Assembly (NCBI GenBank): GCA_964469525.1
Contig: CAYXYU010000001.1
Span: 266,144 to 330,143 of the forward strand
Direction: 5' to 3'
Length of the DNA: 64,000 nt
Source: an uncultured Rickettsiales bacterium
GTDB lineage: Bacteria > Pseudomonadota > Alphaproteobacteria > Rickettsiales > SXRF01
This document shows, piece by piece, positions 3,237 through 53,393 of this stretch (position 1 is its first letter; every line of letters begins with the position of its first letter). The position numbers and the translations under genes were made by a program. The notes under the pieces are model-generated. The model saw nothing but the letters and a program-made list of their open reading frames with translations, had not been told where the DNA came from and ran no database searches.

Positions 3237-3331
3237 GTCATCACCCCAATCGCGTTAGCGATTCTAGGATGGTCAAAATTATATAGAAGTTGGATTCCCC
3301 TAGAATTTGCTGTGCAAATTCGGGGAATGAT
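3237..3331. repeat. Two-module palindromic element of the GTCAT...ATGA class
   Basis: Module 1 is GTCATCACCCCAATCGCGTTAGCGATTCTAGGATGG. Module 2 is GGATTCCCCTAGAATTTGCTGTGCAAATTCGGGGAATGA. The same two modules recur at 8999, 31126 and, inverted, at 43843. The element ends 6 nt from the gpsA stop. Confidence 0.85.
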
Positions 3332-3337
3332 GTTCCC

Positions 3338-4345
3338 TCATATCCCCTCGCTTACGAAGGGCCTTTCCAGGAGGCTTTCCACCACCCGGTCAACGGGGGC
3401 GTTCTCGTAGAGGATGCGGTACACGGCGTCGCAGATCGGCATGTTGAGGTCGAATTTATGGGCCAGCTTGCTGACCGACTCGGCAGCTACCACCCCCTCG
3501 GTGGCTCCCCTTCCCCTTCCGGAAAGTATTTCCTCCTTGCTGCGCCCTTGCCCAATGGCAATGCCGAACGACATGTTGCGCGATTTGGTGCTACCGCAGG
3601 TCAGGATCAAATCCCCGAGCCCCGAAAGCCCCATCAGCGTTTCATACTGCCCCCCCTTGGCGATCGCCAGACGCGCCATCTCGGCGAAGCCGCGCGTCAC
3701 CAGTGCGGCGCGGGCGTTCTCCCCGAATCTTTTGCCGATGGCGATGCCGCAGGCGATGGCGATAACGTTCTTCACCGCACCGCCGATCTGGGCGCCGATG
3801 ATGTCGGTAGTCATGTAGGGGCGGAACAGGCGCCCGCCGAGAGCATAGATCAGCATATCCCACACGGCTTCCTCCTGGCAGGCGATGGTGGTGGCGGTAG
3901 GCAGGCCGCGCGCAGCTTCGTCGGCGAAATTCGGGCCTGAGATAATGGCAATAGGGTTATGCGGCAGGATCGACTGCGTCACTTCGCTCATCAGCATCAG
4001 GCTGCCGCGCTCAATGCCCTTGCTGGCGATCGCGATCGGCACATCGGTAGCGATCAGGTCAGAGATGGCGATGCAGACCGTGCGCAATACATGCGAAGGC
4101 GTGGCAATCACTACCAGATCGCTGCGGCAGACATCGTTGAAGCGATCGGTGACGATGAGGTCGGGATCGATGAAGACCGACGGTAAATAAATATCGTTGA
4201 CGCGGTGCTCGCGGATGGATTGGATGACATGATGGTTACGCGTACCGAGCAATACTTCACTGCCGGCGCGATTTGCAAGGATGGCGAGCCCTGTACCCCA
4301 AGCGCCGCCGCCGATAACGCCGACGCGATAACGGCCGCTTTCCAT
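3338..4345 (-). CDS. gpsA: NAD(P)H-dependent glycerol-3-phosphate dehydrogenase
   Basis: The product has a GVIGGGAWGT Rossmann motif and GpsA-like GLxGLGDLxLTC and NxPIxxAVY motifs. The start is taken at the ATG at 4345, which forms a TAATG overlap with the virB9 stop. The 353-aa track ORF extends further upstream. Confidence 0.88.
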   Translation of the reverse strand: MESGRYRVGVIGGGAWGTGLAILANRAGSEVLLGTRNHHVIQSIREHRVNDIYLPSVFIDPDLIVTDRFNDVCRSDLVVIATPSHVLRTVCIAISDLIATDVPIAIASKGIERGSLMLMSEVTQSILPHNPIAIISGPNFADEAARGLPTATTIACQEEAVWDMLIYALGGRLFRPYMTTDIIGAQIGGAVKNVIAIACGIAIGKRFGENARAALVTRGFAEMARLAIAKGGQYETLMGLSGLGDLILTCGSTKSRNMSFGIAIGQGRSKEEILSGRGRGATEGVVAAESVSKLAHKFDLNMPICDAVYRILYENAPVDRVVESLLERPFVSEGI

Positions 4346-5112
4346 TACTGGTTGGCGGCTAGCCGCTTGGGCGCCCGCATCGCTTCGTTGAAAACGCACA
4401 CGATGTCCTTGCCGTGCCGCAGGGTGAAGCGCTCGCCCACGCGCTCGATCACAATATAATCGCCCCGGGTACGGTAGTTGATCAGCGATTCTTCCCCAGT
4501 ATCAGACACGAGGAAGAAGGCCGGGATATCGGCATTCTTGTTCTTGAATTGGAAATAGGTGAACTGCCCGTCGTCGAAGATCTTGATCGGCGCAATCAGA
4601 TCGGTGCCGGAGATGGTGTAATTGAAGTTATAGCCTCCCGCGTCCCGGACCGGGTCGGGAATCGGCACGGAATCCAGATAATTGCTGACCGTCGCCATAT
4701 CCTGCCCGTCGGGATAGATAAAGCGCATAATGAAGATCATGTCAGGATCTTCGATGCTATTGGTCTCACGCCCGTGCAGCTCGAACAGGTAAGTATGGCG
4801 GTTGGTGATGATGGTCATGTTGGTGGTGGCATCCTGATCAACCGGCTTCAGGAAGAGCCGGTTGCCGGAAGGATTCAGCATCCAGGCGGTGGAGTCACCC
4901 ATGGAGATGGTTGCGATTTCCTCCCCCTGCCCGAACTCGATAGCCGACTGGAAGCGATAATGCCCGGTAAAGCGGTATACCTGATCGGGCTGGTACATGA
5001 CAATGCGCACGCGGTGATCAAGCTGAATAGGGCGTGGCTCGCGTGCGGCCTGCGCGACTGAGGGTAAGGCAAGTGCCACCAGTAACAGCATATATAGTGA
5101 TATGGTTCTCAT
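4345..5112 (-). CDS. virB9: Type IV secretion system protein VirB9 (CagX/TrbG family)
   Basis: The 255-aa product has the signal peptide MRTISLYMLLLVALALPSVAQA. The N-domain reads VYRFTGHYRFQSAIEFGQGEEIATISMGDSTAWML...LFLKP...TNMTIITNRHTYLFEL. The C-domain reads IFDDGQFTYFQF...PAFFLV...INYR... Confidence 0.82.
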   Translation of the reverse strand: MRTISLYMLLLVALALPSVAQAAREPRPIQLDHRVRIVMYQPDQVYRFTGHYRFQSAIEFGQGEEIATISMGDSTAWMLNPSGNRLFLKPVDQDATTNMTIITNRHTYLFELHGRETNSIEDPDMIFIMRFIYPDGQDMATVSNYLDSVPIPDPVRDAGGYNFNYTISGTDLIAPIKIFDDGQFTYFQFKNKNADIPAFFLVSDTGEESLINYRTRGDYIVIERVGERFTLRHGKDIVCVFNEAMRAPKRLAANQ

Positions 5113-5819
5113 TATCCTTCCTGCATCCGCTTGTTGCGGTATTGGGTGACGATGAAGTTAATGGGCTTCACCTTGTCCGTTTCCTCATCCAAAGTAACGC
5201 CATTATATTCAAAATCAATCGTTGCCTGCCACATTGTGGTTTTAATGCCTGTTGGCCCTTCCACGATTGCCTCATAGGTAACTTCCATGGCATTCTGCTC
5301 CGGCAACCGCTTCGAGGATACGACCCTGATACTGCGGCGCGAGTGGCGCTGATAAAGCGCGATGGGGCTGTCGGGACTGCGCGGGTCGATGGCCTGCTGG
5401 AATTCGCGGAACACGCCTTCCGTGCTCTGGCTCCTGATGCCGCTGATGTTGCGGTCGAACGATTCGATATCGTAGCTTTCGCGGAAGGTGACATAGTTGT
5501 TCACCAGAAAGCGCAGCATCGCTGCGCTCGGGTCTTCGCCCTTGTACGCCAGCATACTGATTCGCGGCAGGTCGTCGACGATATTGTTGCTGTTGACAAT
5601 GAATGGAACGGCGCTACTCAACGGGTATAACCCTCGCGCGGCGATAACGGCAACGAACAGAATCATGCCTGCGATGGCGGTGATGGCGATGTACAGATAG
5701 CGCTCGGCCATGGGGTCGTGCACGGCCAGGTCATACATGCTGCGCGCTTCGCGGAAATACTCACCGGTACGAACTTTTTCAGCGATTTCAAGATATTCTT
5801 CCGGCGGTTTTTGTTCCAT
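5112..5819 (-). CDS. virB8: Type IV secretion system protein VirB8
   Basis: There is a single TM segment (YLYIAITAIAGMILFVAVIAA) followed by a VirB8-like periplasmic domain (FLVNNYVTFRESYD). The stop overlaps the virB9 start as TAATG at 5110-5114. The start is uncertain, either the ATG at 5819 (MEQKPP) or at 5906. Confidence 0.75.
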   Translation of the reverse strand: MEQKPPEEYLEIAEKVRTGEYFREARSMYDLAVHDPMAERYLYIAITAIAGMILFVAVIAARGLYPLSSAVPFIVNSNNIVDDLPRISMLAYKGEDPSAAMLRFLVNNYVTFRESYDIESFDRNISGIRSQSTEGVFREFQQAIDPRSPDSPIALYQRHSRRSIRVVSSKRLPEQNAMEVTYEAIVEGPTGIKTTMWQATIDFEYNGVTLDEETDKVKPINFIVTQYRNKRMQEG

Positions 5820-5929
5820 AGCGCGACTATACAATAAAAGCCTGAAAAACACTACGTTTTTGTTGTTGACGGGGGGCATGGCGAACGGTTTAATCAGTCC
5901 CGTCATGCGAAATTTGTAAGCATTATCCC

Positions 5930-6103
5930 ATGGAAAAGTTAACAGAAGTTTTCGCTATGGGCGGTTATGCCGCCTATGTCTGGCCGTCTTTCCTGCTGAC
6001 GGCGCTGGTTCTCGCGGGCATGATCGCCGCAAGTATCCAACGTCTGCGCGTGGCGCAGAGAATTCTGTGTAAACTTCAATCTTCCTCGGGCGATGAAGCC
6101 TAA
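5930..6103 (+). CDS. ccmD: Heme exporter protein CcmD (small ORF, absent from the ORF track)
   Basis: Hand translation gives MEKLTEVFAMGGYAAYVWPSFLLTALVLAGMIAASIQRLRVAQRILCKLQSSSGDEA (57 aa). It contains the CcmD signature FAMGGYAxYVW followed by one TM helix. It overlaps the ccmE start by 11 nt. Confidence 0.8.
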   Translation: MEKLTEVFAMGGYAAYVWPSFLLTALVLAGMIAASIQRLRVAQRILCKLQSSSGDEA

Positions 6104-11000: not shown

Positions 11001-11067
11001 GTCATCCTCGGGCTTGCCCCGGGGGTCCATTTTTAAAAGAATGGATTCCCGCCTTCGCGGGAATGAC
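11001..11067. repeat. Short two-hairpin palindromic element of the GTCAT...ATGAC class
   Basis: The sequence is GTCATCCTCGGGCTTGCCCCGGGGGTCCAT, a 12-nt spacer, then GGATTCCCGCCTTCGCGGGAATGAC. The terminal GGGAATGAC supplies the ATG at 11063. Confidence 0.85.
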
Positions 11068-12439
11068 AAAGAAAGCATATGAAATGACTGTCAAAAAATG
11101 GACCCCCGAAACCTGGCGCAAGCTGCCGATCAAGCAGCAGCCGGAATATAAAAATGCCCAGCAGTTAAAGGCGGTTGAGGGGCAGCTGGCGATGATGCCG
11201 GTGCTGGCGTCGCCCGATGAGGCGCGGGCGTTGAAGCGCGAGCTGGCGCAGGCGGCGGTGGGCAAGGCGTTCCTGCTGCAGGGTGGCGATTGCGCGGAGA
11301 GTTTTGCCGAGTTTTCCGAGGATAACCTGCGCCGGTTTTTCCGGGTATTGCTGCAGATGACCATGGCGCTGATGTATGGCGCGGGGGTGCCGGTGGTGAA
11401 GGTCGGGCGCATCGCCGGGCAGTTCGCCAAGCCGCGCTCGGAAGGTACGGAGAAAAAAGAAGGTAAGGAGCTACCGGCCTATCGCGGCGACATGGTCAAT
11501 GCCATGGAGTTCGACGAAAATGGGCGCATACCCGATCCCGAGCGGCTGCTTCGCGCCTATTACCAAGGCGCGGCGACCATCAATTACCTGCGCACGCTGG
11601 CGCGTGGCGGCTATGCGTCGCTCAACCGCATCAACCGCTGGAACATGGAGTTCGCACAGAGTTCGGCGCAGGGCAAGCGCTTCTCCGACCTGGTGGCGCG
11701 CATCAATGAGTGCATCGGCTTTATTTCGGCTTGCGGCCTGCCGATCGACGAGGTCGAGCAGTTCTCTGAGGCCAGCTTCTTCACCTCGCACGAGGCGCTG
11801 CTGCTCAATTATGAGGCGGCGCTGACCCGATTCAGCAAGACGGATGAGAAATATTACGCCGGATCGGCGCATATGCTGTGGATCGGTGACCGCACGCGCT
11901 CGCCCGACGAGGCGCATGTCGAGTTTATGCGCGGCATTGCCAATCCGATTGCGATGAAGTGCGGCCCTTCGATGACGACGGACGGCCTGCTCAAACTGAT
12001 CGACATCCTGAACCCCGAGAACGAACCGGGGCGCCTCACCCTGATTTCGCGCATGGGCGCGACCAAGGTCGGCGAGCTGTTGCCGCCGCTGGTACGTGCG
12101 GTGCAGAAGGAAGGCCGGAGCGTCGTCTGGTCGTGCGATCCGATGCACGGCAACACCATCAAGTCGCCCAACGGCTATAAGACGCGCAAATTCACCGACA
12201 TCCTGACCGAGGTGCGCCAGTTCTTCGCCGTGCACAAGGCGGAAGGCACGGTGGCAGGCGGCATGCATTTTGAGATGACCGGGCAGGACGTGACCGAATG
12301 TTTAGGCGGCGCGCAGGCGATTTCGGAGATGAATCTTTCGGACCGGTATCACACCCACTGCGACCCACGTCTTAACGCTTCGCAATCACTGGAGCTGGCG
12401 TTTTTGATTGCCGAGACGCTGAAGAAGCAGAAATCCTAA
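11063..12439 (+). CDS. 3-deoxy-7-phosphoheptulonate (DAHP) synthase, class II
   Basis: The 458-aa product has class II hallmarks: [35 protein letters not shown] and CDPMHGNT. The start is either the ATG at 11063 (inside the repeat terminus) or at 11084. Confidence 0.88.
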
Positions 12440-12441
12440 CC

Positions 12442-12574
12442 GTCATTCCGGCCAGAATTTAATTTTTGGCCGGAATCCAGTGTGCCGCGTCTGCGGCACG
12501 AATATTCCATACCGCGCCCACGGCGCTTGACTGGATTCCCCTATAATTTTGCTACGCAAAATTCGGGGAATGAC
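12442..12574. repeat. 133-bp two-hairpin composite element, paralog of 16050..16172
   Basis: The left hairpin is GTCATTCCGGCCAGAATTTAATTTTTGGCCGGAATCCAG. A shared central segment (TGTGCCGCGTCTGCGGCACGAATA...GGCGCTTGACTGG) follows. The right hairpin is ATTCCCCTATAATTTTGCTACGCAAAATTCGGGGAATGAC. The element starts 2 nt after the DAHP synthase stop. Confidence 0.88.
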
Positions 12575-12582
12575 AAAAAGAA

Positions 12583-12606
12583 GCCGAGACGCTGAAGAAG
12601 CAAAAA
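12583..12606 (+). repeat. Second copy of the 3' end of the DAHP synthase gene (direct repeat of 12410..12433)
   Basis: GCCGAGACGCTGAAGAAGCAAAAA matches GCCGAGACGCTGAAGAAGCAGAAA at 23 of 24 positions. Both copies are followed within 6 nt by an in-frame stop, and together they bracket the 12442..12574 element. Confidence 0.85.
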
Positions 12607-12698
12607 GGATGATTGATGGAAAGATGATAGATGATAAGATGACACTCTTATTATCTATTCTCTTATCATCCATTATCTATTCCTAAGGAATCATCACT

Positions 12699-13001
12699 AT
12701 GACCAAGACAAAAACCGGCGGCATCGCCGCCGATCAGTTGCGCAGCATCATTCAGCGTGTCGAGAAACTCGAAGAGGAAAAGGCGGGGATTTCCGCCGAC
12801 ATACGCGACGTGTTTGCCGAGGCCAAGGGTAACGGGTTCGACGTCAAGGCCATCCGCACCATTATCAAGATGCGCAAGATGGATCAGTCTGAGCGCGAAG
12901 AGCAGGAAACCGTGCTCGACACCTACCTTCATGCGCTCGGCATGCTGCCGGAGGACGACACGCGTGCCCGCAAACGCGAAGAGGAATTCGAGGCGGCGTG
13001 A
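12699..13001 (+). CDS. gapR: GapR/UPF0335 (DUF2312) family DNA-binding protein
   Basis: The 100-aa product reads QLRSIIQRVEKLEEEKAGISADIRDVFAEAKGNGFDVKAIRTIIKMRKMD...ETVLDTYLHALGM. This closely matches the conserved alphaproteobacterial GapR pattern. Confidence 0.82.
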   Translation: MTKTKTGGIAADQLRSIIQRVEKLEEEKAGISADIRDVFAEAKGNGFDVKAIRTIIKMRKMDQSEREEQETVLDTYLHALGMLPEDDTRARKREEEFEAA

Positions 13002-13005
13002 TACT

Positions 13006-13034
13006 CCTCCCCCTACGGGGGAAGGGATTTTTTT
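13006..13034 (+). terminator. Rho-independent terminator of gapR, embedded in the 3' end of the convergent GT2 gene
   Basis: The stem CCTCCCCC, loop TAC and stem GGGGGAAGG are followed by GATTTTTTTG. The hairpin loop contains the stop codon of the minus-strand gene 13013..13786. Confidence 0.7.
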
Positions 13035-13786
13035 GATTCCCACACCTTTGCCAGTCTGGTGAAGCGGCTGAAGCCGTACATCACGGAATTGACGAATCCC
13101 CAGAAGCCCTGCAGGCAATAGCCGCGCAGGATATAGGCCTTGAGGAACCCCAGCGGGAATGCCAGCAGGATGCGCGTGCGCAGCAAAGGCAGCGGTACCC
13201 CGCGCTCCATCATATCCTGCGCCTGCATGTCGGAGTAGCGGTTGATTTTCGCAATGCTGTGCGCGATGCCGCGTGACGAATAATGCAGCACACTATGTTT
13301 CAAATCCCCCACCGTCCCGCGCTCCATATACACCCGGTCGTGCACGCTGCTGTCGTGGTAGCGCCCGGACTGGCGGTTATAGAGGCGGATGGCATTGATG
13401 CTGTGCGCAAAGGGAGCAGGCTTGTCCCTACCCGGCATCACTTCAACAATATCTAACCGGTAAGCATCATGCGAGGGTTGGTGCGTGAACAGCGCCGCAA
13501 TCTCCTCTGCCAACTTTGGACTTACCACCTCATCGGCATCAAGGTTCAAAAGCCAGTCGTTGCGGCACTGGTCTTCCCCGAAGCGCTTCTGCGGGCCGTA
13601 GCCGGGCCAGGGATTGAAGATGACGCGTCCTCCCGCCGCCTCCGCGACCTCCACCGTATTGTCGGTGCTGCCGCTGTCGATAACCACTATTTCGTCTACC
13701 CAGTCACGTACGCTGGCGATAGTGCGACTGATGCGGTCGGACTCGTTGACGGCGATGATGAATACGGACAGCGGAAGCTTACTCAA
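13013..13786 (-). CDS. Glycosyltransferase family 2
   Basis: The product reads LSVFIIAVNESDRISRTIASVRDWVDEIVVIDSGSTDNTVEVA...NLDADEVV, with DxD-type GT-A motifs. Confidence 0.8.
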   Translation of the reverse strand: MSKLPLSVFIIAVNESDRISRTIASVRDWVDEIVVIDSGSTDNTVEVAEAAGGRVIFNPWPGYGPQKRFGEDQCRNDWLLNLDADEVVSPKLAEEIAALFTHQPSHDAYRLDIVEVMPGRDKPAPFAHSINAIRLYNRQSGRYHDSSVHDRVYMERGTVGDLKHSVLHYSSRGIAHSIAKINRYSDMQAQDMMERGVPLPLLRTRILLAFPLGFLKAYILRGYCLQGFWGFVNSVMYGFSRFTRLAKVWESKKSLPP

Positions 13787-15083
13787 CCGGTAATCCTTTC
13801 ATGCGCGGCAGGCTGGCGCTCACGGCGAGGCTATACCAGAACAGGATGGCCGGCCAGTTGGAAAAAGCGCTCTGCGTAATGATAAGCGGGAACAGTACTA
13901 CCGCCATGCCAGCGCAGGCAAACGCCGCCAGGATGCAGGACGGACCGGTAAATTCCATGTCACGCCACGCCCGCCGGACGATCAGCAGCATGGAAAATAC
14001 GAATAGCAGGAAACCGGATGTTCCGGTGGCTTCCAGCCATTGCAGGTAGATATTGTGCGGATGCATGTCGCAGAAGAATACCTGCAGCACCGGCATGTTT
14101 TCCTGACAGGCGTCGCGGAACTGCTGCGCGCCGATGCCGGTCAGCGGATGCTGCGCCCACAGGCCGATGGCGGCCTTGAACAATTGACCGTAATACGTGT
14201 TCTCGACGTCGGACAGCTGCTGGAGAGAGAACAGGATCCGGTGCTGGAGGCCGGGCTGCGTAGACACGACCACTGCCACCAGCGCCGCCATCAGCACGCC
14301 GGCCAGCAGCAGCCGGCGCCGGAGGATGGGGCGGCAGACAAACAGCGTCAGGCCGATAACGCCGAGCCCAAGCAGCGAGAGGAGAGTAGCCGAGCGTTCG
14401 GAACTGACCATGATCACCACCAGTATCAGCATGGCGGCACCGATAGCCCAGCAGAGGCGACGGTAATTCCGGTGCGCAACGAAGTAGTAGAATAGAACGC
14501 CTGTCAGGGGCAGCCCTACCTTTAGCAGGTAATTGCCTACGTTGGGATGCCCCAGCATGCCGGTCAGTCGCGTCCACCGGTTGACGATATTTCCCGTTTG
14601 CGTGATGTCGTGTCCCGACAGGGAGGTGCCGGTCAGGTACTGCCAGCCGCCATCGATCGCCACCATCAGCACAGCGGCCATCCCTGCTGTGGCAGCGATG
14701 CCAAGTGCGCTGGGCGAGATGAGCAGCCAGTAGCGCAGCGCCGCGTAAAACAGTACGAAGCGTCCCCAGATCAATGCAACGATGAAGCTCTGCCGCGCAT
14801 CGTAGGGCGTAAGCGGGCTCATCAGCATCATGAGCACCCAGAGGGCCGCAAGCGTCCGTATCTCAGGTTCACGTATCCAGCCCCAGTCGCGGGTGATGGC
14901 GCAGTGCATAACGAACAGTAGCCCGATCAGACTGGCGGCGATGTCCGCCCCTGCACGGCTGACCGCAAGCAGCAACGGCAGCGCGCATAGTAGAGTGAAT
15001 GCCGCATGCTGCGTCGAACGGAAAAACAGGCGCGGCTCAGGCAGCACTGCCTGCAACACGGCGCACTCCCTGCAGTGAGGCAA
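13779..15083 (-). CDS. O-antigen ligase/polymerase-like (Wzy_C) polytopic membrane protein
   Basis: The product has roughly 10-12 predicted TM segments and a large loop region, and it sits between two GT2 genes. The start is uncertain. The ATG at 15083 overlaps the upstream gene by 47 nt, and GTG alternatives exist at 15059 and 15047. Confidence 0.6.
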   Translation of the reverse strand: MPHCRECAVLQAVLPEPRLFFRSTQHAAFTLLCALPLLLAVSRAGADIAASLIGLLFVMHCAITRDWGWIREPEIRTLAALWVLMMLMSPLTPYDARQSFIVALIWGRFVLFYAALRYWLLISPSALGIAATAGMAAVLMVAIDGGWQYLTGTSLSGHDITQTGNIVNRWTRLTGMLGHPNVGNYLLKVGLPLTGVLFYYFVAHRNYRRLCWAIGAAMLILVVIMVSSERSATLLSLLGLGVIGLTLFVCRPILRRRLLLAGVLMAALVAVVVSTQPGLQHRILFSLQQLSDVENTYYGQLFKAAIGLWAQHPLTGIGAQQFRDACQENMPVLQVFFCDMHPHNIYLQWLEATGTSGFLLFVFSMLLIVRRAWRDMEFTGPSCILAAFACAGMAVVLFPLIITQSAFSNWPAILFWYSLAVSASLPRMKGLPVE

Positions 15084-15984
15084 AAAATTCAGTCATTTGC
15101 GCCAATTCATTGTCGTTGACGGGTTCCAGCGTCCATTTTGAGCGCACATAACGCAGGAAATCCGGTGACAAGGTAGCGCGGAGCTTGCCGCGCATGAGGC
15201 GGTGCTGCTTCCACATGGCCGATAGGCAGCGACGGTACAGGTGGCGGCGCGCCGTTTCGTCAAGATCGGGGAAATCCACCAGCATGTCGCGGTGGGCCAG
15301 GAAGCGGTCATGGTTGAGCTGCGATACGTTGCGCGACAGTTCACCTTCGACCTTGGGAATCAGTAAAATGGGTGCTTTGAGCACGATGAAGCGCCGCGCG
15401 ACGCGCGACAGGCGAAGGCCCAGCGATTCGTCCTGGATAAAGACGCGCTCGTCGCAGCCGCCTGCCTGCATGAAGGTCTCGCGCCGTACCAGCTGCGACA
15501 TGCGGTGGATACGCTGCTGGAACACGAATGCCATGGGATTGTCGCTGACGATGTATTCGGCATTCTCGGGCACGCGCCGTCCAATCAGCTTTTCACTCTC
15601 AGTCTCGGTTTTTGTCCACCCGCCATGCACCACGTCAGCGTCATGCGCCTCCATCAACGCCAGCATCAGCGAGGTGGCGTTGGCGGCCAGTATGTCATCG
15701 GAGTCGATAAACTGCAGGTACTTTCCGCGCGCCAGCCGCGCTCCCTGGTTGACGCGCACGCTTGGGCCGGCGTTGGTACTGTTTTTCACGATGGTAACAT
15801 TGAGAACGCCGCGGGTGACCTCCTCGATGACTGCCAGCGAGCGGTCGGTCGATACGTCGTCAACGAAGATATATTCGGATGGAATATTGCCGTCCTGCTT
15901 CAGCAGCGACGTCGCCGTATGCCCGATATACGGCTCCTTATTGTACACGGTGACGATATAGCTGACGGTGATGTTATCGGTCAT
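15037..15984 (-). CDS. Glycosyltransferase family 2
   Basis: The product reads VSYIVTVYNKEPYIGHTATSLLKQ...YIFVDDVSTDRS...YLQFIDSDD, which are GT-A DxD motifs. Confidence 0.8.
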   Translation of the reverse strand: MTDNITVSYIVTVYNKEPYIGHTATSLLKQDGNIPSEYIFVDDVSTDRSLAVIEEVTRGVLNVTIVKNSTNAGPSVRVNQGARLARGKYLQFIDSDDILAANATSLMLALMEAHDADVVHGGWTKTETESEKLIGRRVPENAEYIVSDNPMAFVFQQRIHRMSQLVRRETFMQAGGCDERVFIQDESLGLRLSRVARRFIVLKAPILLIPKVEGELSRNVSQLNHDRFLAHRDMLVDFPDLDETARRHLYRRCLSAMWKQHRLMRGKLRATLSPDFLRYVRSKWTLEPVNDNELAQMTEFFASLQGVRRVAGSAA

Positions 15985-16049
15985 GGCTCGCTCTTTTTTT
16001 GCTGTAATGTCAAAGCATAACGGCCGGATGTTGTAAACGGGAAGTTATC

Positions 16050-32857: not shown

Positions 32858-32929
32858 GTCACTCCTGCGTAAGCAGGAGTTTTGCTGATTGCCTTAAATA
32901 AGCAAGCCCCCTGCTTTCGCAGGGGTGAC
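32858..32929. repeat. 72-bp two-hairpin palindromic element of the GTCAC...GTGAC variant
   Basis: The sequence is GTCACTCCTGCGTAAGCAGGAGT, then the spacer with palindrome TTGCTGATTGCCTTAAATAAGCAA, then GCCCCCTGCTTTCGCAGGGGTGAC. It ends 4 nt from the metC stop. Confidence 0.8.
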
Positions 32930-32933
32930 AATT

Positions 32934-34100
32934 TTACCCCTTCTTCAGCCGCGCCAGTCCCGCTTCAAGATCACGGATCAGATCATCGGGATGCTCAAGG
33001 CCGATATGGATGCGCAGCGCCTGCCCCTTATAGGGCCACTTGCTGACCGAGCGAATCTTGGTGGGGTAGAAGGGGATCATCAGGCTTTCGAACCCGCCCC
33101 AGCTGTAACCCATGCCGAAGAGTTCCATGTTGTCCAGCATGGCGGCGAGCTGCGCCGTGCTGGCAGGTTCCTTCAGCACGAAGGCAAACAGGCTGCAGGC
33201 GCCCGTGAAGTCGCGCTTCCACAGCTCATGGCCGGGCGCGCCTTCCAGCGCCGGGTGCAGTACCGCCTCGACCTCCGGCCGACCGCGCAGCCAACGGGCC
33301 ACGGTGAGCCCCTGCTCGTACTGCTGTTTCAGCCGCACGGCCATGGTGCGCAGCCCTCGCTGTGCGAGGTAGCAGTTATCCGCGCTGGGATTGCCGCCAG
33401 TGTTTCGGAAGGTACGCAGCAGCGGCGGATAATGCTCGTTCTTGCAGGAAACGACGCCCATTACCAGGTCGGAATGGCCGGAAATGTATTTGGTGGCAGA
33501 GTGGATGGAAATATCGACGCCGAGTTCGAAAGATTTCATGTAAAGCGGAGTACCCCAGGTGTTGTCGCCGATGACGATGCAGTTCTTCTCATGCGCCGCC
33601 TTGGCAATGGCGGGAATGTCCTGCACCTCAAAGGTAAGCGATCCCGGACTTTCAACATAAACCACACGGGTATTGCTCTTGATCAGCGAAGCGATGTCCC
33701 TTCCAATCAGCGGATCGTAATAAGTGACCTCGACGCCGAAGCGTTTCATCTCATAATCACAAAAGCGCCGCGCCGGGCCATAAACGCTGTCGACCATCAG
33801 CAGGTGGTCGCCGTTTTTAAGGAAAGCCAGCAGGGACAGCACGATGGCCGCCAGCCCCGACGACAGCACGATGGCCTGGTCGGCTCCTTCCAGCTCGGCG
33901 AGGCTGCGTTCCAGCGTATCGCTGGATACGGTACCGTAGCGCCCGTAGGTGGCATAAGGGCAGTCGCCGCGTTCGGCGGCCTCGAAGGCGGCCAGCGTCG
34001 GGAACAGGATGGTCGAGGCACGGTAAGGTGGGGTATTGACAGCGCCGCGGTGAATATCGGGGGCGCAGCCGAGGGTAGCGAGAAGCGTTTCGGTTTTCAT
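32934..34100 (-). CDS. metC: Cystathionine beta-lyase (PLP-dependent, Cys/Met metabolism family)
   Basis: The 388-aa product has the PLP-lysine context SATKYISGHSD and the N-terminal pattern NTPPYRASTILF. Confidence 0.82.
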   Translation of the reverse strand: MKTETLLATLGCAPDIHRGAVNTPPYRASTILFPTLAAFEAAERGDCPYATYGRYGTVSSDTLERSLAELEGADQAIVLSSGLAAIVLSLLAFLKNGDHLLMVDSVYGPARRFCDYEMKRFGVEVTYYDPLIGRDIASLIKSNTRVVYVESPGSLTFEVQDIPAIAKAAHEKNCIVIGDNTWGTPLYMKSFELGVDISIHSATKYISGHSDLVMGVVSCKNEHYPPLLRTFRNTGGNPSADNCYLAQRGLRTMAVRLKQQYEQGLTVARWLRGRPEVEAVLHPALEGAPGHELWKRDFTGACSLFAFVLKEPASTAQLAAMLDNMELFGMGYSWGGFESLMIPFYPTKIRSVSKWPYKGQALRIHIGLEHPDDLIRDLEAGLARLKKG

Positions 34101-34199
34101 GAATCAGGCAATGGTTGAAAGGGCAGGTTGCGGAAACATCACCCGATAATCACTGCGACAGAAGGTCTTGTCAACCGCTAAGCCCTTGTCCTGCCGCTT

Positions 34200-34701: not shown

Positions 34702-37700
34702 ATGGCTAAACACTATTACCCTGAGGTCGATCCCAACCCCGATTTCTCTGTCATTGAAAAGGCAGTGCTGGCCTACTGGAAAAAGGAAAAACTATTTGAA
34801 AAATCAGTGGATGCCCGTCCTGCTTGCAAGAATAGCGAGCTCAATGAGTTCATTTTTTACGATGGTCCGCCCTTTGCCAACGGCCTGCCGCATTACGGCC
34901 ACCTGCTCACCGGCTATGTAAAGGATTTATTCGCCCGCTACCAGACCATGAAGGGCAAGCGCGTCGAGCGCCGCTTCGGCTGGGACTGCCACGGCCTGCC
35001 GGCGGAAATGGGTAGCGAAAAAGAGCTGGGCATTTCCGGTCGCGCCGCCATCACCAATTTCGGCATCGGCAAATTCAACGAGCATTGCCGTACCTCGGTG
35101 ATGAAATACACGCAGGAATGGGAAGAATACGTGACGCGCCAGGCGCGCTGGGTGGATTTCAAGAACGACTACAAAACCATGGACATCAACTTCATGGAGT
35201 CCGTGCTGTGGGCGTTCAAGCAGCTTTATGATAAAGGCCTGGTGTTTGAAGCCTATCGCGTGATGCCCTATTCCTGGGCCGCCGAAACGCCGCTTTCGAA
35301 TTTTGAAACCAAGCTCGATAATTCGTACCGCGAACGCGAGGACAAAGCCATCACCGTGGCGTTTGAACTCAACACGCCGCCGCACGGTGCACCGAAAGCC
35401 GATAAATATTATGTGCTGGCATGGACGACCACGCCATGGACACTTCCGAGTAACCTGGCCTTGGCGGTGAATGCAGAAAATGAGTATGTGTGCATTCGTC
35501 ATTCCCGCGAAAGCGGGAATCCAGTTTGTTATATTATAGGTGCTAACGCTGTAGCTAGATATGCAAAAGAATTTGGTGATGCCGAAGGAAAAGTAAGTGT
35601 GGATTCCCGCTTTCGCGGGAATGACGTGGTAGGATTAAGCTACCACCCCCTCTTCCCGTACTTTGCCTCGCATAAGCATTCGTTCAAGATTCTGGATGGC
35701 TCGTCGTTCGTTAGCGATGCCGACGGTACCGGCATCGTGCATATGGCGCCGGGGTTCGGTGAGGACGACCAGAAGGTGTGCGAGGCGAACGGTATCGAAA
35801 TCGTCGTGCCGGTCGATGGGCAGGGCAAATTCACCGACAAGATATACGATATTCCCTATCCTCGTCATTCCCGCGAAGGCGGGAATCCATACTCTGAGAC
35901 GGTGGTTATGGACCCCCGCCTGCGCGGGGGTGACGAAGTATTGAGTCTCAAAGGCCTCAACGTCATCGCCGAGCCGGGCGGCAGCAAGTTCGGTTTGGCC
36001 AATGACAGAATCATTGATTACCTCAAGGCCACCGGCCAGCTTATCAAGCAGGAGCAGATCAAGCACAACTACCCGCATTGCTGGCGCACCGACACGCCGC
36101 TGATTTACCGCGCCATGCCGAGCTGGTATGTCGAGGTGACTAAATTCCGCGACCGTGCGGTGGAGATGAACAAGCAGATCAACTGGATTCCCGCGCACAT
36201 CCGCGACGGGCAGATGGGGCATATGCTGGCCACCGCGCCTGACTGGTCGATTTCGCGTAACCGCTTCTGGGGCACGCCGATACCGGTGTGGCGCTCCAAA
36301 TCCGGTAAGATAAAAGTGTTCGGCAGCATCGCCGAAATCGAAAAAGCCAGCGGCCAGAAAGTCAAAGACCTGCACCGCCCGTATATCGACGAGATCGTCA
36401 TCCACGAGGGCGGTGAGGAATACCGCCGCGTCGAGGACGTGTTCGATTGCTGGTTCGAATCGGGCAGCATGCCGTTCGCGCAGGTGCATTATCCGTTCGA
36501 GAACAAGGACTGGTTCGAGGCGCATTTCCCGGCCGATTTCATCACCGAATATGTCGGCCAGACGCGCGGCTGGTTCAATACGCTCATCATGCTGTCGACG
36601 GCGCTATTCGACAAGCCACCCTTTCAGAATTGCGTGTGCCACGGCGTGGTGCTCGATTCGGAAACCGGCCTGAAATATTCCAAGCGCCTGAAGAATTACA
36701 AGGACCCGATGGAAGTGATGGACAAGTTCGGGGCCGACGCGCTGCGCTGGCTGATGATTTCCTCGCCCGTGATGCGCGGCATGGACCTCTCGGTTGATCC
36801 TGAAGGCAAATTTATCCGCGACGTGGTGCGCCTGGCCATCAAGCCGATCTGGAACGCGTATAATTTCTTCTGCTTGTACGCGAATGCGGATGGCATCAAG
36901 GCGAAATTCTTAATTGATTCAGAGAATGGAATGGATCGGCATATTTTAGCCAAGTGTAAGCAAACAGTGGAAAGCATTGAACAATCGCTTGATGTGTACG
37001 ATACGCCCAGTGCTTGTGATGCCGTATCTGTCTTTTTCGAGGTGCTTAACAACTGGTACATTCGTCGCAGTAAAACACGTTTCTGGGCTGAAGAAAAAAC
37101 CCAAAGCAAGCAAGAAGCTTATGACACGCTGTATACAGTACTTGTAATAATTTGTCGCGCAGCTGCCCCTCTTTTGCCCATGACATTAGAAGAAATCCAC
37201 CGTGGCCTTACTGGTGAAGAGAGTGTTCATTTGATGGATTTCCCAGATGTAAAAAGTCTCAATGTGGATGAAAACCTGGCAAGAGAAATGGATTTCGCAA
37301 GAGACATTTGCAATGCTGCACTTGCAGTACGCAATGCTGCTAATATTCGTGTGAGGCAACCGCTTGGTAAAATGACCTTGGTTGGTAATCGGCAGTTTCC
37401 ACTTGGTTTGGGAGCAATAATAGCAGATGAAATAAACATAAAGAATTTTTCTAATTCAAAAGATCTTAAACAATACGCCACTCTCAAACTCTCCATCAAC
37501 AACCCCGTCCTCGGCAAGCGCCTTCCTGCCCTGATGAAGCAGATTATTCCTGCTTCCAAGAAGGGTGAGTGGAAACAGGTGGACGGCACGGTGGAAATTT
37601 GCGGTGAGAAGCTGCTGCCTGGTGAATTCACGTTGCAACTCGAACCCAAGCCCGAATACAAGGACCGGGCGCAGGCACTCTCTACCAACGATGCGCTGGT

Positions 37701-37995
37701 GATCCTCGATACCACCATCACGCCCGAGCTTGAGGCCGAGGGCATCGCGCGCGACCTGGTGCGCATGGTCCAGCAGGCGCGCAAGGATGCGGCGCTGGAT
37801 GTATCGGACAGGATCCGGCTGCACATCGGCGCGCCGGAGCCGATCGCCAAAGCGGTGGCGGCGCATAAATCATATGTCATGGAGCAGACGCTGTCGGTCG
37901 AGCTTTCCGAGAAAAAACCGGAGCCGGCCATCTTCTCTACCGAGAACACGCTCGACGACCAGAAGGTGATTATTTCCTTTGCCATTGCGGCCTAA
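34702..37995 (+). CDS. ileS: Isoleucine--tRNA ligase, type 2 (eukaryote-like), carrying two in-frame repeat insertions
   Basis: The 1097-aa product has the HYGH (HIGH-class) motif in PPFANGLPHYGHLLTGY, a KMSKS-class motif (KYSKRLKN), and IleRS editing and anticodon-binding regions. It stays open through the repeats at 35498..35625 and 35864..35934. Confidence 0.92.
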   Translation: MAKHYYPEVDPNPDFSVIEKAVLAYWKKEKLFEKSVDARPACKNSELNEFIFYDGPPFANGLPHYGHLLTGYVKDLFARYQTMKGKRVERRFGWDCHGLPAEMGSEKELGISGRAAITNFGIGKFNEHCRTSVMKYTQEWEEYVTRQARWVDFKNDYKTMDINFMESVLWAFKQLYDKGLVFEAYRVMPYSWAAETPLSNFETKLDNSYREREDKAITVAFELNTPPHGAPKADKYYVLAWTTTPWTLPSNLALAVNAENEYVCIRHSRESGNPVCYIIGANAVARYAKEFGDAEGKVSVDSRFRGNDVVGLSYHPLFPYFASHKHSFKILDGSSFVSDADGTGIVHMAPGFGEDDQKVCEANGIEIVVPVDGQGKFTDKIYDIPYPRHSREGGNPYSETVVMDPRLRGGDEVLSLKGLNVIAEPGGSKFGLANDRIIDYLKATGQLIKQEQIKHNYPHCWRTDTPLIYRAMPSWYVEVTKFRDRAVEMNKQINWIPAHIRDGQMGHMLATAPDWSISRNRFWGTPIPVWRSKSGKIKVFGSIAEIEKASGQKVKDLHRPYIDEIVIHEGGEEYRRVEDVFDCWFESGSMPFAQVHYPFENKDWFEAHFPADFITEYVGQTRGWFNTLIMLSTALFDKPPFQNCVCHGVVLDSETGLKYSKRLKNYKDPMEVMDKFGADALRWLMISSPVMRGMDLSVDPEGKFIRDVVRLAIKPIWNAYNFFCLYANADGIKAKFLIDSENGMDRHILAKCKQTVESIEQSLDVYDTPSACDAVSVFFEVLNNWYIRRSKTRFWAEEKTQSKQEAYDTLYTVLVIICRAAAPLLPMTLEEIHRGLTGEESVHLMDFPDVKSLNVDENLAREMDFARDICNAALAVRNAANIRVRQPLGKMTLVGNRQFPLGLGAIIADEINIKNFSNSKDLKQYATLKLSINNPVLGKRLPALMKQIIPASKKGEWKQVDGTVEICGEKLLPGEFTLQLEPKPEYKDRAQALSTNDALVILDTTITPELEAEGIARDLVRMVQQARKDAALDVSDRIRLHIGAPEPIAKAVAAHKSYVMEQTLSVELSEKKPEPAIFSTENTLDDQKVIISFAIAA
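35498..35625 (+). repeat. 128-bp two-hairpin element inserted in frame in ileS
   Basis: GTCATTCCCGCGAAAGCGGGAATCCAG is followed by a 74-nt spacer of 36% GC and then GGATTCCCGCTTTCGCGGGAATGAC. It is translated as RHSRESGNPVCYIIGANAVARYAKEFGDAEGKVSVDSRFRGND (43 codons, 35497-35625). Confidence 0.85.
35864..35934 (+). repeat. 71-bp two-hairpin element inserted in frame in ileS
   Basis: GTCATTCCCGCGAAGGCGGGAATCCAT is followed by a spacer and then GACCCCCGCCTGCGCGGGGGTGAC. It is translated as [24 protein letters not shown] (24 codons, 35863-35934). Orientation and reading frame match the first insertion. Confidence 0.88.
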
Positions 37996-39681: not shown

Positions 39682-39723
39682 AGCCGCTTGTCGCATTCGC
39701 ACAAACCATTTATAACCGAAGGT

Positions 39724-41277
39724 ATGACGCGTCCGATAACGTGGCTGATATGGCCGATGTTCTTCGGCGGTGTGATTGACGCGCAGGCGCAGACACCGGA
39801 TAGCGGCCTGCCCCCGCCGGATGCCGTCATCCGCTATGTTCCGCCGGACCGCGTATCGTCTCCTTCCCCTCCCCTCACTCCCAAAGTGCCGCCACACGCG
39901 CCGGTGGTGGAGGTGATTCCGCCGTCGGCCCCTGTGTCGCCTACGCTTGCGCCGCCGCTTCCGGTACCCGACGCCGATACGGGACCGCCGCCCGAGCAGA
40001 AGGATGAATTTATCGCAGCGCTTTCGCATGTCTATGCTACGCAACCGCAACTGAAGGCGCAGCGGGAAGCGCAGAAGGCGCTGGACGAAACGGTGGCGCA
40101 GGCGATTTCCGGTTTCCGCCCGGAGATCATCGCCGGTTATGACGTCAGCCGCGACCGTACCACCGGCGACGACGACCGCTGGGAGTATGAGAATTCGCAT
40201 CAGAAGACGCTGACCGTCGAGCAGCCCCTGTTTTCCGGCGGCGGCACATTTGCCAATTTTCAGACGGCTAGAGAGCGCATACGCGCCGGGCGGGCGCAGC
40301 TGACGGCTGTCGAGCAGCAGGTGCTGTTCGCCGCCGTGGTGGCCTATACGGACGTGGTGGAAAAACAGTCGGTGCTCGAAGTCAACCAGAACAATGTCGA
40401 CGTGCTGAGGAAGCAACTCGAAGCAACGCAGGCGCGTTACGAGGTAGGTGAGCTAACCAGGACTGATGTTGCCCAGTCGCAGGCACGGCTGGCCATCGCC
40501 ATGACCGGCGAGCGGCAGGCGCTGGGCGACCTCGAATCCTCGCGCGCCACCTTCCGCCGTGTCGTCGGTTACGATGCGCCGCAGCAGGTGGCACTGCCGC
40601 CCGAGCCGGAGTCGCTGCTGCCTCAGCATGTGGAGCAGGCGGTGGAATGGTCGCAGGTGAATGAGCCGACCCTGCTGGCAGCGCGTTATCTGGAGGAAGC
40701 GGCGGATAGCGCCATCAACCAGCAGGTCTCTACCCTGCTTCCCAGTGCGTCCGTGCAGGCAACGGCCTCGCGTGGCAACGATCCGATTCCCGGCCTTGGC
40801 CGCGGGCATAACGACAGCCTTCGTCTTAACATTTCCATCCCCCTTTACCAGTCGGGCGCCGAGTGGTCGCGGTTGCGCGAAGCAAGATATCTGGCACAAC
40901 AGGCCAAGTTTACTATGTTCGACACGCGCGACAGCGTGGTGGAAAACGCTACCCGTGCCTGGCAGGATTACCAGACGGCGAAGGCGGTCATCGCTTCCAA
41001 CGAGGAAGCGGTAAAAGCGGCGGAGGAAGCGTTGGAAGGCATCCATCAGGAAGCGCTGTACGGCACACGCACCATCCTCGACCTGCTGGATACGGAGCAG
41101 GAAGTGTTCAATGCCCAACTCGAACTCGTCCGTGCAAGGGTGGCGGAAAAGCAACAGGCGTACCGTTTATTGGCAGCGGTAGGCCGCTTAACGGCACGCG
41201 AACTGCAACTGCCGGTTGACCTTCACGATCCCAAAAAGCATTATGACGATGTGAAATATCAGTTGATTGGTCTCTGA
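39724..41277 (+). CDS. tolC: TolC-family outer membrane channel with a proline-rich N-terminal extension
   Basis: Two OEP repeats are present (ALSHVYATQPQLKAQREAQKA..., RYEVGELTRTDVAQSQARLA, ...YGTRTILDLLDTEQEVFNAQL). The signal peptide is taken from MTRPITW. About 65 residues of Pro-rich linker precede the TolC core. Confidence 0.82.
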   Translation: MTRPITWLIWPMFFGGVIDAQAQTPDSGLPPPDAVIRYVPPDRVSSPSPPLTPKVPPHAPVVEVIPPSAPVSPTLAPPLPVPDADTGPPPEQKDEFIAALSHVYATQPQLKAQREAQKALDETVAQAISGFRPEIIAGYDVSRDRTTGDDDRWEYENSHQKTLTVEQPLFSGGGTFANFQTARERIRAGRAQLTAVEQQVLFAAVVAYTDVVEKQSVLEVNQNNVDVLRKQLEATQARYEVGELTRTDVAQSQARLAIAMTGERQALGDLESSRATFRRVVGYDAPQQVALPPEPESLLPQHVEQAVEWSQVNEPTLLAARYLEEAADSAINQQVSTLLPSASVQATASRGNDPIPGLGRGHNDSLRLNISIPLYQSGAEWSRLREARYLAQQAKFTMFDTRDSVVENATRAWQDYQTAKAVIASNEEAVKAAEEALEGIHQEALYGTRTILDLLDTEQEVFNAQLELVRARVAEKQQAYRLLAAVGRLTARELQLPVDLHDPKKHYDDVKYQLIGL

Positions 41278-41335
41278 TAATAGTATTTCTAATACGGGTG
41301 GATTATTCCCCTTGGGGGCAGCATAGGGATGCAGC

Positions 41336-42109
41336 ATGGAGGCTAAAAAGGAAGCCAAGAAAGGCGACGATCAGGATTTATCCATGGAGGAAATCCTGCA
41401 ATCGATTCGCAAGATTATCGCTGAGGATGACGACCCGGACAAGAAACCGGGGGATAAGAAAGCTAACGGCAATAAGGCCGACGACGACGTGCCGGGGTCG
41501 GATGTCCTTGAGCTTACCGAAATGCTTAAAGAAGATGGCACTGTTGAAAGTCTGAAACCCGAGGTGGTGGTAAAACCGGAGGCTGCAAAAGAAGCCAAGC
41601 CTGCTGATGTGCTAGGCAAGATCGACGAGGCGCTGAAACCGGAAAAACCGATTGAAAAGCCTGCAGAGAAAGCTCAGGAAAAGCCGCCGGGAAAACCGGC
41701 CGAGCCGGTTGCCGCCCAGCCGGAGGAAAAGCCCGCCGCGCCACCAGAGAAACCGCCTGAGAAGCCGGTGGAAGCCGTGTCCGTTGCTGCCGCTGCTGCT
41801 GAACCAGCCAAACCCGTTGCTCCTGCCCAGTCGGCGCCATCAATGGCTCAGGCGGAGGCCGATGCGCTGCTGTCGAAAGCCGCCGCAGAAGCCAGCGCCG
41901 CCGAGTTCAAGCGCCTGCAGGCTGCCGCCGAGCCACCGCTGCCGCCGGTCGTCACCACCCCCTCCCCCGCTTTCAGTTCCGGTCTGACGGTGGAAACCAT
42001 GGTGATGGACATGCTAAAGCCGATGATGAAGGCCTGGCTGGACGCCAACCTTCCCGCCATCGTCGAGCATATCGTCGAACGCGAAGTGCGGAAGATCACG
42101 CGACACTAA
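41336..42109 (+). CDS. popZ: PopZ/DUF2497 family polar organising protein
   Basis: The N-terminus reads [18 protein letters not shown] long Pro/Ala/Glu/Lys linker follows. The C-terminus reads [36 protein letters not shown]. Confidence 0.8.
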
Positions 42110-43842: not shown

Positions 43843-43964
43843 GTCATTCCCCGGATTTGCGCAGCAAATCCTAGGGGAATCCAGTCCTTATATTCAAACT
43901 GGATAACCCTAGAATCGCTATGCGATTCGGATGATGACGCATTTCCTGCTTTCACAGGAATGAT
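43843..43964. repeat. Two-module palindromic element in inverted orientation, plus an extra small hairpin
   Basis: The sequence is GTCATTCCCCGGATTTGCGCAGCAAATCCTAGGGGAATCCAG ... GGATAACCCTAGAATCGCTATGCGATTCGGATGATGAC (to 43938), then ATTTCCTGCTTTCACAGGAATGA. It fills the gap between the ilvD stop (6 nt away) and the hemerythrin gene stop (2 nt away). Confidence 0.85.
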
Positions 43965-53316: not shown

Positions 53317-53320
53317 TATC

Positions 53321-53393
53321 GTCATTCCCGCGAAGGCGGGAATCCATGCTTCTCCATTTGCGTGGCATGGATACCGGCCTGCGCCGGGATGAC
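53321..53393. repeat. 73-bp two-hairpin element of the GTCAT...ATGAC class
   Basis: GTCATTCCCGCGAAGGCGGGAATCCAT is followed by a spacer and then GGATACCGGCCTGCGCCGGGATGAC. It starts 4 nt after the ispDF stop. Confidence 0.85.

Follow-up and report, generated by a model that had tools for sequence, protein, structure and literature searches.

Two genes of a type IV secretion system (T4SS), virB8 and virB9, stand side by side between a cytochrome c maturation (ccm) cluster and the housekeeping gene gpsA in a 64-kb stretch of DNA (hereafter the window) from an uncultured alphaproteobacterium of wastewater and activated sludge, an organism with 57% G+C and a complete biosynthetic repertoire. What is such a pair doing at this place? 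The original prediction for the locus had left two answers side by side: an outlying part of a scattered T4SS resembling the rvh (Rickettsiales vir homologue) system, or a relic co-opted into a housekeeping operon. On the evidence given below, the pair is very probably the rvhB8-II/rvhB9-I islet of a scattered rvh T4SS, the remainder of which lies elsewhere in the same genome. Support for the scattered arrangement comes from the orthology of the two proteins, from linkage in relatives, from a published pair of RvhB4 proteins and from contigs of matching abundance in the source metagenomes. At least two further islets are indicated, namely virB3-virB4-virB6 (with virB6 in several copies) and virB8-virB9-virB10-virB11-virD4. 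The pair itself is a known islet; novelty lies only in its link to gpsA, which an entire clade of relatives has kept.

Identity of the virB8-virB9 pair

Profile searches, which might have assigned the two proteins to families foreign to T4SSs, placed both in the VirB8 and VirB9 families. The longest virB8 open reading frame (ORF) matches Pfam PF04335 (4.5e-21; 76.1 bits against a gathering score of 23.2; profile positions 11–210 of 213). Its product has an N-terminal cytoplasmic tail, one transmembrane segment and a periplasmic NTF2-like domain, and matches twelve VirB8/TrwG structures. The NCBIfam equivalog for canonical VirB8 is not reached (44.8 versus 188 bits), which fits a divergent paralogue. 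VirB9 covers the Pfam CagX profile (2.9e-62; positions 2–198 of 198), exceeds the cut-off of TIGR02781 (242.4 versus 217.7 bits; positions 5–247 of 248) and aligns over its full length with TrwF of R388 (residues 4–245 with 4–242; 3.9e-33), as expected of a member of the VirB9/TrbG/CagX family. Its N terminus, MRTISLYMLLLVALALPSVAQA, is signal-peptide-like and ends in AQA. The neighbouring gpsA is recognized by NF000942 (385 bits) and by both Pfam domains, N- and C-terminal, of glycerol-3-phosphate dehydrogenase. Collectively, the PF04335, CagX, TIGR02781 and NF000942 matches confirm that a VirB8-like gene and a complete VirB9-like gene lie between the ccm cluster and gpsA, as first proposed.

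By sequence, the pair is orthologous to RvhB8-II and RvhB9-I, and neither protein is a generic conjugative VirB8 or VirB9. Among solved structures, VirB8 is best matched by 4O3V, the VirB8-like protein of Rickettsia typhi (1.7e-13), and next by the VirB8 structure 4lso (1.5e-8). The locus of a Rickettsia endosymbiont (L078) that carries both paralogue sets served as reference. There, VirB8 of the window matches RvhB8-II (blastp, 6e-25) and gives no match to RvhB8-I, and VirB9 is 49% identical to Rickettsia RvhB9-I over 235 aa and matches the truncated RvhB9-II in the N-domain only. At the position of the NPxG motif, KPIN is found in the window and APFN in Rickettsia RvhB8-II, versus NPVG in RvhB8-I. 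In relatives of mid or high G+C content, most VirB8 copies encoded in the virB8-virB9-virB10-virB11-virD4 operon (the operon copies) read NPLG, and the operon VirB9 copies are only 28–40% identical to VirB9 of the window. The C-terminal cysteine of VirB9, C239, is invariant in 30 relatives and is also found in the Rickettsia, Tisiphia and Wolbachia copies. In Agrobacterium, the corresponding cysteine of VirB9 bonds VirB7. The window thus holds the combination that marks rvh, namely a VirB8 devoid of NPxG beside a full-length RvhB9-I-type VirB9 with the C-terminal cysteine. In Rickettsia, likewise, virB8a has lost NPxG, a C-terminal cysteine has been noted in VirB9a, and RvhB9-I is the sole complete VirB9 copy (Gillespie et al. 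2009, PMC2653234).

Other features are held in common with the rvhB8-II/rvhB9-I genes of R. typhi and R. prowazekii (PMC2653234). In both cases virB8 precedes virB9 on one strand with tight coupling, VirB9 is a full-length protein of ~250 aa, and the pair lies apart from a virB3-B4-B6 islet; like the Rickettsia pair, that of the window is probably a second copy beside virB8-B9-B10-B11-D4 genes. The surroundings differ. The Rickettsia pair adjoins and diverges from virB7-virB8b-virB9b-B10-B11-D4 and has mrp genes behind it, whereas that of the window is placed between ccm and gpsA and fused to the latter. The hosts differ as well, Rickettsia being a reduced endosymbiont, in contrast to the biosynthetically complete host of the window with its 57% G+C. 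The core complexes of R388 Trw and pKM101 Tra, where TrwF and TraO correspond to VirB9 and TrwG to VirB8, share domain layout and fold family with the pair, and VirB8 aligns with TrwG. These systems are, however, encoded in contiguous plasmid-borne operons with a relaxase and a pilus, whereas the window genes are chromosomal and, very probably, scattered and duplicated.

A clade that keeps the pair on gpsA

One genome per GTDB species was scanned with two RvhB9-I motifs, which gave 94 genomes with VirB9 relatives; the collection does not include the genome of the window itself. The nearest are metagenome-assembled genomes (MAGs) titled Rickettsiales or Alphaproteobacteria bacterium (58–76% identity to VirB9 of the window), and next come Rickettsiaceae, Tisiphia, Wolbachia and Mesenet (43–51%). 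A protein search yielded >120 clusters at 63–77% identity, all from MAGs titled Alphaproteobacteria, Pseudomonadota or Rickettsiales bacterium. A maximum-likelihood tree of VirB9 unites the gpsA-linked loci in a single clade (44 rows; support 99/97) that includes the window, whose nearest rows are L001, L012, L010 and L008. Two of the 44 rows show no gpsA and are contig ends. Outside this clade stand L049, a four-member group (L047, L048, L052 and L053) and the Rickettsiaceae, which make up a separate well-supported clade; the branching order of the latter relative to L049 and the four-member group is unresolved. The VirB9 tree groups the pair with RvhB9-I orthologues of Rickettsiales lineages. 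Since all gpsA-linked loci belong to a single VirB9 clade, the fusion to gpsA arose once and was then kept. By its VirB9, the organism would be a member of a basal, free-living-type Rickettsiales-like clade, which, going by the VirB9 tree and the titles of NCBI records, could lie within the order Rickettsiales or be sister to it.

The common arrangement in this clade is ccmF-ccmE-ccmD and, divergent from it, virB8-virB9-gpsA-nadA followed by genes for a GT4 glycosyltransferase and a hydrolase. In species-level relatives, gpsA follows virB9 in 41 loci, usually with nadA, the glycosyltransferase and the hydrolase behind it, and ccmF-ccmE-ccmD lie divergently upstream in most of the closer loci. 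Median identities to the window within the clade are 66% for VirB9, 48% for VirB8, 72.5% for GpsA, 77% for NadA, 57% for CcmE and 54% for CcmF. The conservation of VirB9 thus lies between that of CcmE/CcmF and that of GpsA, and therefore selection constrains the pair much as it does the housekeeping genes around it. Its G+C content at third codon positions (GC3), 0.69–0.73, is also like that of the neighbours. A literature search found no paper linking virB8/virB9 with gpsA, and the arrangement is not described in the searchable text and supplements of PMC9352585 and PMC11077975. As a synteny marker, it offers an inexpensive way to recognize one large clade of uncultured bacteria.

The three genes are indeed chained, as the original prediction had it, by 1-nt TAATG overlaps (Table 2). 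In most relatives, the distance between the virB9 stop and the candidate starts of gpsA is −11 to +40 nt (~90–107 nt in a few), and the longest virB8 and virB9 ORFs overlap by 4 nt, a consistent pattern that is not proven because the ORF starts are uncertain. In the window, ATG 4345 is taken as the start of gpsA because the family models begin about seven residues later, at residue 25 of the ORF opened by GTG 4399. For virB8, ATG 5819 (MEQKPPEEY...) is the most likely start because homology to the relatives and their called genes (244–247 aa) begin there, and therefore ~110 nt of divergent intergenic DNA precede ccmD.

Parts of the region are present in four metatranscriptomes of one wastewater study. 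One RNA contig of 708 nt (4684–5390) crosses the virB8/virB9 junction and another of 308 nt (4126–4433) the virB9/gpsA junction; further RNA contigs cover 4929–5124 and 5539–5875, the latter reaching into the intergenic region between virB8 and ccmD. RNA cover of the neighbouring 20 kb is patchy, with almost none on ccmF and more on some other genes, whereas DNA cover is even, which argues for RNA and not for carried-over DNA. Behind gpsA lies a hairpin repeat, CCCCTAGAATTTGCTGTGCAAATTCGGGG, of which the window has two copies (0 expected by chance), directly after the stops of gpsA and ilvD. The gpsA-proximal copy has a folding free energy (dG) of −21.2 kcal/mol (z = −3.15). All short-read (Logan) assemblies break at this copy, and in the three metagenome runs in which it appears (X1, X2 and X6) the 42-nt piece is 1.5 to 2.2 times as deep as its flanks. 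The repeat family is REP-like (repetitive extragenic palindromic) or terminator-like, and its copy behind gpsA is likely the 3′ end of the virB8-virB9-gpsA transcript. Taken together, the junction overlaps, the RNA contigs and the hairpin lead to virB8-virB9-gpsA being read as one unit that ends at the hairpin. Co-transcription with gpsA, for which the original prediction had asked for RNA data, is supported by these assembled contigs across both gene junctions, and translational coupling can be inferred from the overlaps. The intergenic region between virB8 and ccmD is presumed to be the promoter region of both units. A scan for sigma-70 promoters gave no consensus match in front of virB8, and its total number of matches did not exceed that in shuffled sequence; promoter-like sites for nadA are found at 3241–3195, past the hairpin.

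The remainder of the system and competing readings

That the 64 kb contain no virB4, virB6, virB10, virB11 or virD4, as stated at the outset, was borne out. A six-frame phmmer search of the window with the relatives' VirB4, VirB2/VirB6, VirB8-I, VirB9-II, VirB10, VirB11 and VirD4 matched the virB8-virB9 pair alone, ten window ORFs left unnamed by eye have no T4SS Pfam domain, and no virB5, relaxase or oriT was found within the window.

Relatives supply further parts. On contig JANRLL010000008.1, which has the same synteny and a VirB9 66% identical to that of the window, virB3, virB4 (806 aa) and three VirB6-type genes, two of them matching TrbL, form an islet 6.7–14.3 kb from the pair. The gene order reads hydrolase, GT4, nadA, gpsA, virB9 and virB8, then, across the divergent intergenic region, ccmD-I, pheA-like, DAHP synthase, gapR, three VirB6, VirB4 and VirB3. 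A separate virB3-virB4 islet with multiple virB6 genes is thus present in the clade. The slot past DAHP synthase and gapR, which holds this T4SS islet in JANRLL (locus L153, 11378–19221), is filled by a polysaccharide cluster in JBLYPR and in the window (12500–16000), where the cluster is composed of GT2, O-antigen-ligase-like (Wzy_C) and GT2 genes. On RFOF01000064.1, two tandem TrbL/VirB6 genes lie 3–6 kb from the pair.

Published data point the same way. Basal rvh MAGs presumed to be free-living (Mitibacteraceae, Athabascaceae and others; Schön et al. 2022, PMC9352585; Lehman et al. 2024, PMC11077975) resemble the window host in being environmental and in having a larger metabolism and rvh hallmarks. 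One MAG in the RvhB4 table of the latter paper, CoA8N_M8, is listed with RvhB4-I (MCE2926869) and RvhB4-II (MCE2926148; Table S1 of PMC11077975). It corresponds to locus L018, inside the gpsA-linked clade, and its VirB9 (MCE2926615.1) falls within the same accession block as the RvhB4 entries.

A more distant MAG, JBEAVG (VirB9 51% identical), carries both the pair (L060) and a virB8-virB9-virB10-virB11-virD4 operon (L087), in which VirB9 has 139 aa. Operon VirB9 is truncated in this locus, in L093 and L097 and in Rickettsia, whereas it is full length (CagX 1–198 of 198) in the mid- and high-G+C loci L149, L112, L119, L121 and L147. Loss of the C-terminal domain of RvhB9-II therefore looks like a later event. 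L119 also shows a contiguous system, with virB4 and a VirB2-VirB6 fusion-like ORF (TrbC and TrbL domains, 898 aa) directly upstream of virB8-B9-B10-B11-D4. VirD4 is 70–78% identical across the whole order among the best 120 matches and has no resolving power for clade assignment.

The sampled words of the window are 100% present in four wastewater runs, plus activated-sludge, sludge and biofilm runs of other studies. The metagenome collection was scanned for VirD4 with the invariant motif KPGQMVDDVQK, using G/C-ending codons at four positions according to the codon usage of the window. The scan gave 48 loci, many of 50–62% G+C with B8-B9-B10-B11-D4 operons, whose D4 genes are 80–89% identical to each other at the DNA level. 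L151 served as reference for the D4-B11 contigs; it comes from the mini-metagenome that also contains L012, the closest pair-bearing relative of the window. In run X1, a contig of 38,483 nt carries D4 and B11 at ~85% to L151 and is collinear with D4, B11, B10 and B9 of L147; matches to these four genes were seen on it, a virB8 copy was not, and its depth equals that of the window contigs. A second X1 contig, of 14,911 nt, is collinear with L153 along the entire virB4 gene, and additional pieces fall in virB6 and virB3.

Depths, measured per run as Logan contig word depth, were compared in eight runs from five studies for the window and the D4-B11 contigs and in four runs (X1, X2, X10 and X22) for the virB3-B4-B6 contig (Table 1). 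The D4-B11 contig depth matches that of the window in six runs, falls to traces in the seventh and to nothing in X22, where the organism is absent. The agreement over the eight runs is strong and amounts to co-abundance, not to physical linkage.

Table 1. Word depth of the window and of T4SS contigs in metagenome runs
Run	Window	D4-B11(-B10-B9)	virB3-B4-B6
X1	24.6–27.3	27.4 (38,483 nt)	25.8 (14,911 nt)
X2	20.1–22.3	21.5	23.6
X10	14.5–15.6	16.4	16.9
X6	5.6–8.6	5.8–8.2
X5	6.1–8.9	5.1–8.9
X9	2.7–4.9	3.6–5.0
X21	traces	traces
X22	none (only 40-nt scraps on ccmF)	none	none

If the pair is one islet of a scattered rvh T4SS, VirB9, exported via its signal peptide, would form the outer-membrane core ring with VirB10 and a VirB7-like lipoprotein, and the VirB8 paralogue would span the inner membrane once, as a bitopic protein, and expose a domain to the periplasm, both roles being those of the respective families. 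Devoid of NPxG, this VirB8 probably does not mix with canonical VirB8, as proposed for RvhB8-II. The placement of the pair just ahead of gpsA(-nadA), facing away from the ccm operon, goes back to a single event in the clade ancestor. One transcript and coupled translation would then yield the two proteins together with a phospholipid-precursor enzyme. The wastewater bacterium would be a basal Rickettsiales-like member already equipped with the rvh machine while free-living, the stage at which this machine is thought to have acted on other microbes, before eukaryotic hosts. Use of rvh against neighbouring microbes by free-living basal lineages is indeed proposed in published work (PMC11077975). 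For the candidate effectors of the window, a T4SS is probably available, which does not make any of them a demonstrated substrate.

Several points weigh against this picture. The other islets are tied to the window genome by matching depth in the eight runs and by relatives, and by no single contig. The T4SS parts evidenced for the population are virB3-B4-B6 and virB9-B10-B11-D4; virB2, virB7 and a second virB4 are not among them. In the most syntenic relative, JBLYPR010000032.1, where virB8 and ccmD start back to back as in the window, 56 kb walked on the ccm side contain no T4SS gene, only housekeeping genes syntenic with those of the window, and therefore islet positions must vary within the clade. 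The RNA data are assembled metatranscriptome contigs, in which the strand is not recorded and some DNA may be present. Finally, full-length operon VirB9 in mid- and high-G+C relatives implies that VirB9 of the pair may not be the sole complete copy, which makes its role less certain. If operon VirB9 is full length in the gpsA-linked clade too, the pair would be a true second set, with a structural, gating or regulatory role.

This last point bears on a different view of the pair, unlikely but worth stating, in which it forms a separate constitutive envelope complex (gate, scaffold or an additional ring in the outer membrane) tied to membrane growth, truncated RvhB9-II being a later simplification. 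It is suggested by >40 species-level lineages that keep the pair on gpsA, the first step towards membrane phospholipids, beside cytochrome c maturation genes, and by the related mid- and high-G+C main operons that keep a full-length VirB9 and a mostly canonical VirB8. If true, it would give an origin and a testable role to the long-puzzling rvh duplications.

A neighbouring proposal, improbable as matters stand, leaves the pair in the rvh system but makes it a separate regulatory or scaffold module (channel gate or second outer-membrane complex), expressed constitutively via gpsA and independently of the secretion operons. The divergent VirB8 copy and the separate transcriptional wiring of the pair would suit such a module, and PMC11077975 proposes that rvh duplicates autoregulate secretion. 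The pair also looks redundant for the basic channel, given that the main operon of relatives has its own full-length VirB9 and, mostly, an NPLG VirB8. However, the loci with full-length operon VirB9 may lie outside the gpsA-linked clade, and RvhB9-I of Rickettsia is the only complete VirB9 and hence structural there.

A relic of a lost T4SS, kept only through the gpsA operon or co-opted for a non-secretion function in the envelope, is very improbable. The tight fusion to housekeeping genes, the loss of NPxG and the lack of other T4SS genes, both in the 64 kb of the window and in ~67 kb around the pair in JBLYPR010000032.1, could be read in this sense. Yet both ORFs are intact in all 44 rows of the clade, VirB9 is conserved like the housekeeping proteins, and NPxG loss is the normal state of Rickettsia RvhB8-II (PMC2653234). 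Moreover, in clade members virB3, virB4 and virB6 share a contig or a MAG with the pair, and the source metagenomes contain depth-matched virB3-B4-B6 and B9-B10-B11-D4 contigs. Thus, of the co-opted relic first envisaged, the operon link to gpsA stands, conserved in the clade and spanned by RNA contigs, and the relic itself falls; ‘orphan’ virB8/virB9 pairs in such genomes are not to be read as relics. Membership in a conjugative (Trb/Tra/Vir) element, or in an integrated plasmid now decayed, in place of an rvh-type chromosomal system can be set aside as extremely improbable, for although the NCBIfam title reads ‘P-type conjugative transfer protein VirB9’ and weaker TrbG models also match, the latter stay far under their cut-offs, neither a relaxase nor an integrase nor any break in composition is seen, the pair keeps its chromosomal place between ccm and gpsA across the 41 species-level relatives, and the near relatives are without exception RvhB9-I orthologues from Rickettsiales lineages.

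Coordinates and other features of the window

The features that make up the locus are listed in Table 2, together with the copies of a second palindromic repeat.

Table 2. Positions in the window of the pair, its surroundings and a dispersed repeat
Feature	Position	Strand	Remarks
virB8, RvhB8-II-type paralogue	5112..5906	(-)	longest ORF 264 aa; probable ATG 5819, giving 235 aa
virB9, RvhB9-I-type paralogue	4345..5112	(-)	255 aa; signal peptide, N- and C-terminal VirB9 domains, C239 (VCVFNE)
gpsA, NAD(P)H-dependent glycerol-3-phosphate dehydrogenase	3338..4345	(-)	final gene of the unit; longer GTG ORF 3338–4399
TAATG stop/start overlap virB8/virB9	5110..5114	(-)	ggaTAATGaga; GGAAGGA Shine-Dalgarno-like run before the overlap
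TAATG stop/start overlap virB9/gpsA	4343..4347	(-)	cagTAATGgaa; gpsA ATG and virB9 TAA have one base in common
Divergent intergenic region virB8/ccmD	5820..5929		presumed promoter region
ccmD	5930–6103		divergent from virB8
Palindromic hairpin repeat	3297..3325	(-)	13 nt past the gpsA stop; second copy 43849–43877
CGTCATTCCCGCGAAGGCGGGAATCCA copies	35496–35523, 35600–35626, 35862–35889		inside ileS (34702–37995)
CGTCATTCCCGCGAAGGCGGGAATCCA further copies	11041–11067, 25148–25175, 25244–25272, 53319–53347

Palindromic repeats are known to insert in frame into genes in Rickettsia. A palindromic repeat of ~28 nt, CGTCATTCCCGCGAAGGCGGGAATCCA, found at at least seven sites of the window, recalls these elements. 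Its three copies in ileS are in frame and add peptides such as HSRESGNP and SRFRGNDV, and IleS of the window has 1097 aa versus 1076 aa in the syntenic relative. Short-read assemblies break at the copy at 11041–11069.

Two places have the look of acquired DNA. Between pyrC and pyrB, a 329-aa ORF on the minus strand (19477–20466) has a GC3 of 0.42, versus 0.78–0.81 in its neighbours, and no Pfam match; in JBLYPR010000032.1, genes for a PMT_2 membrane protein and for an unknown protein of 522 aa occupy this slot, which thus varies within an otherwise conserved string of pyrimidine genes. The ORF is a candidate acquired gene. Behind a tRNA gene (60521–60609) follow two low-GC3 ORFs (60885–61175 and 61172–61921), the second with a weak match (4.3e-5), slightly short of the cut-off, to PF14736, the eukaryote-type protein N-terminal asparagine amidohydrolase. 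At the corresponding place, the syntenic relative has a gene for a methyl-accepting chemotaxis protein and unknowns, and 60521–61921 may be a small acquired islet.

In the region 39688–42109, the gene after tolC encodes a DUF2497 (PopZ-like) protein and ilvD comes next; neither an ankyrin gene nor virD4 is present there. Finally, the longest ORF at 32925–34118 on the plus strand (397 aa; GC3 0.61) looks like an antisense artefact, the syntenic relative having a pyridoxal-phosphate enzyme of Cys/Met metabolism (392 aa) on the opposite strand.

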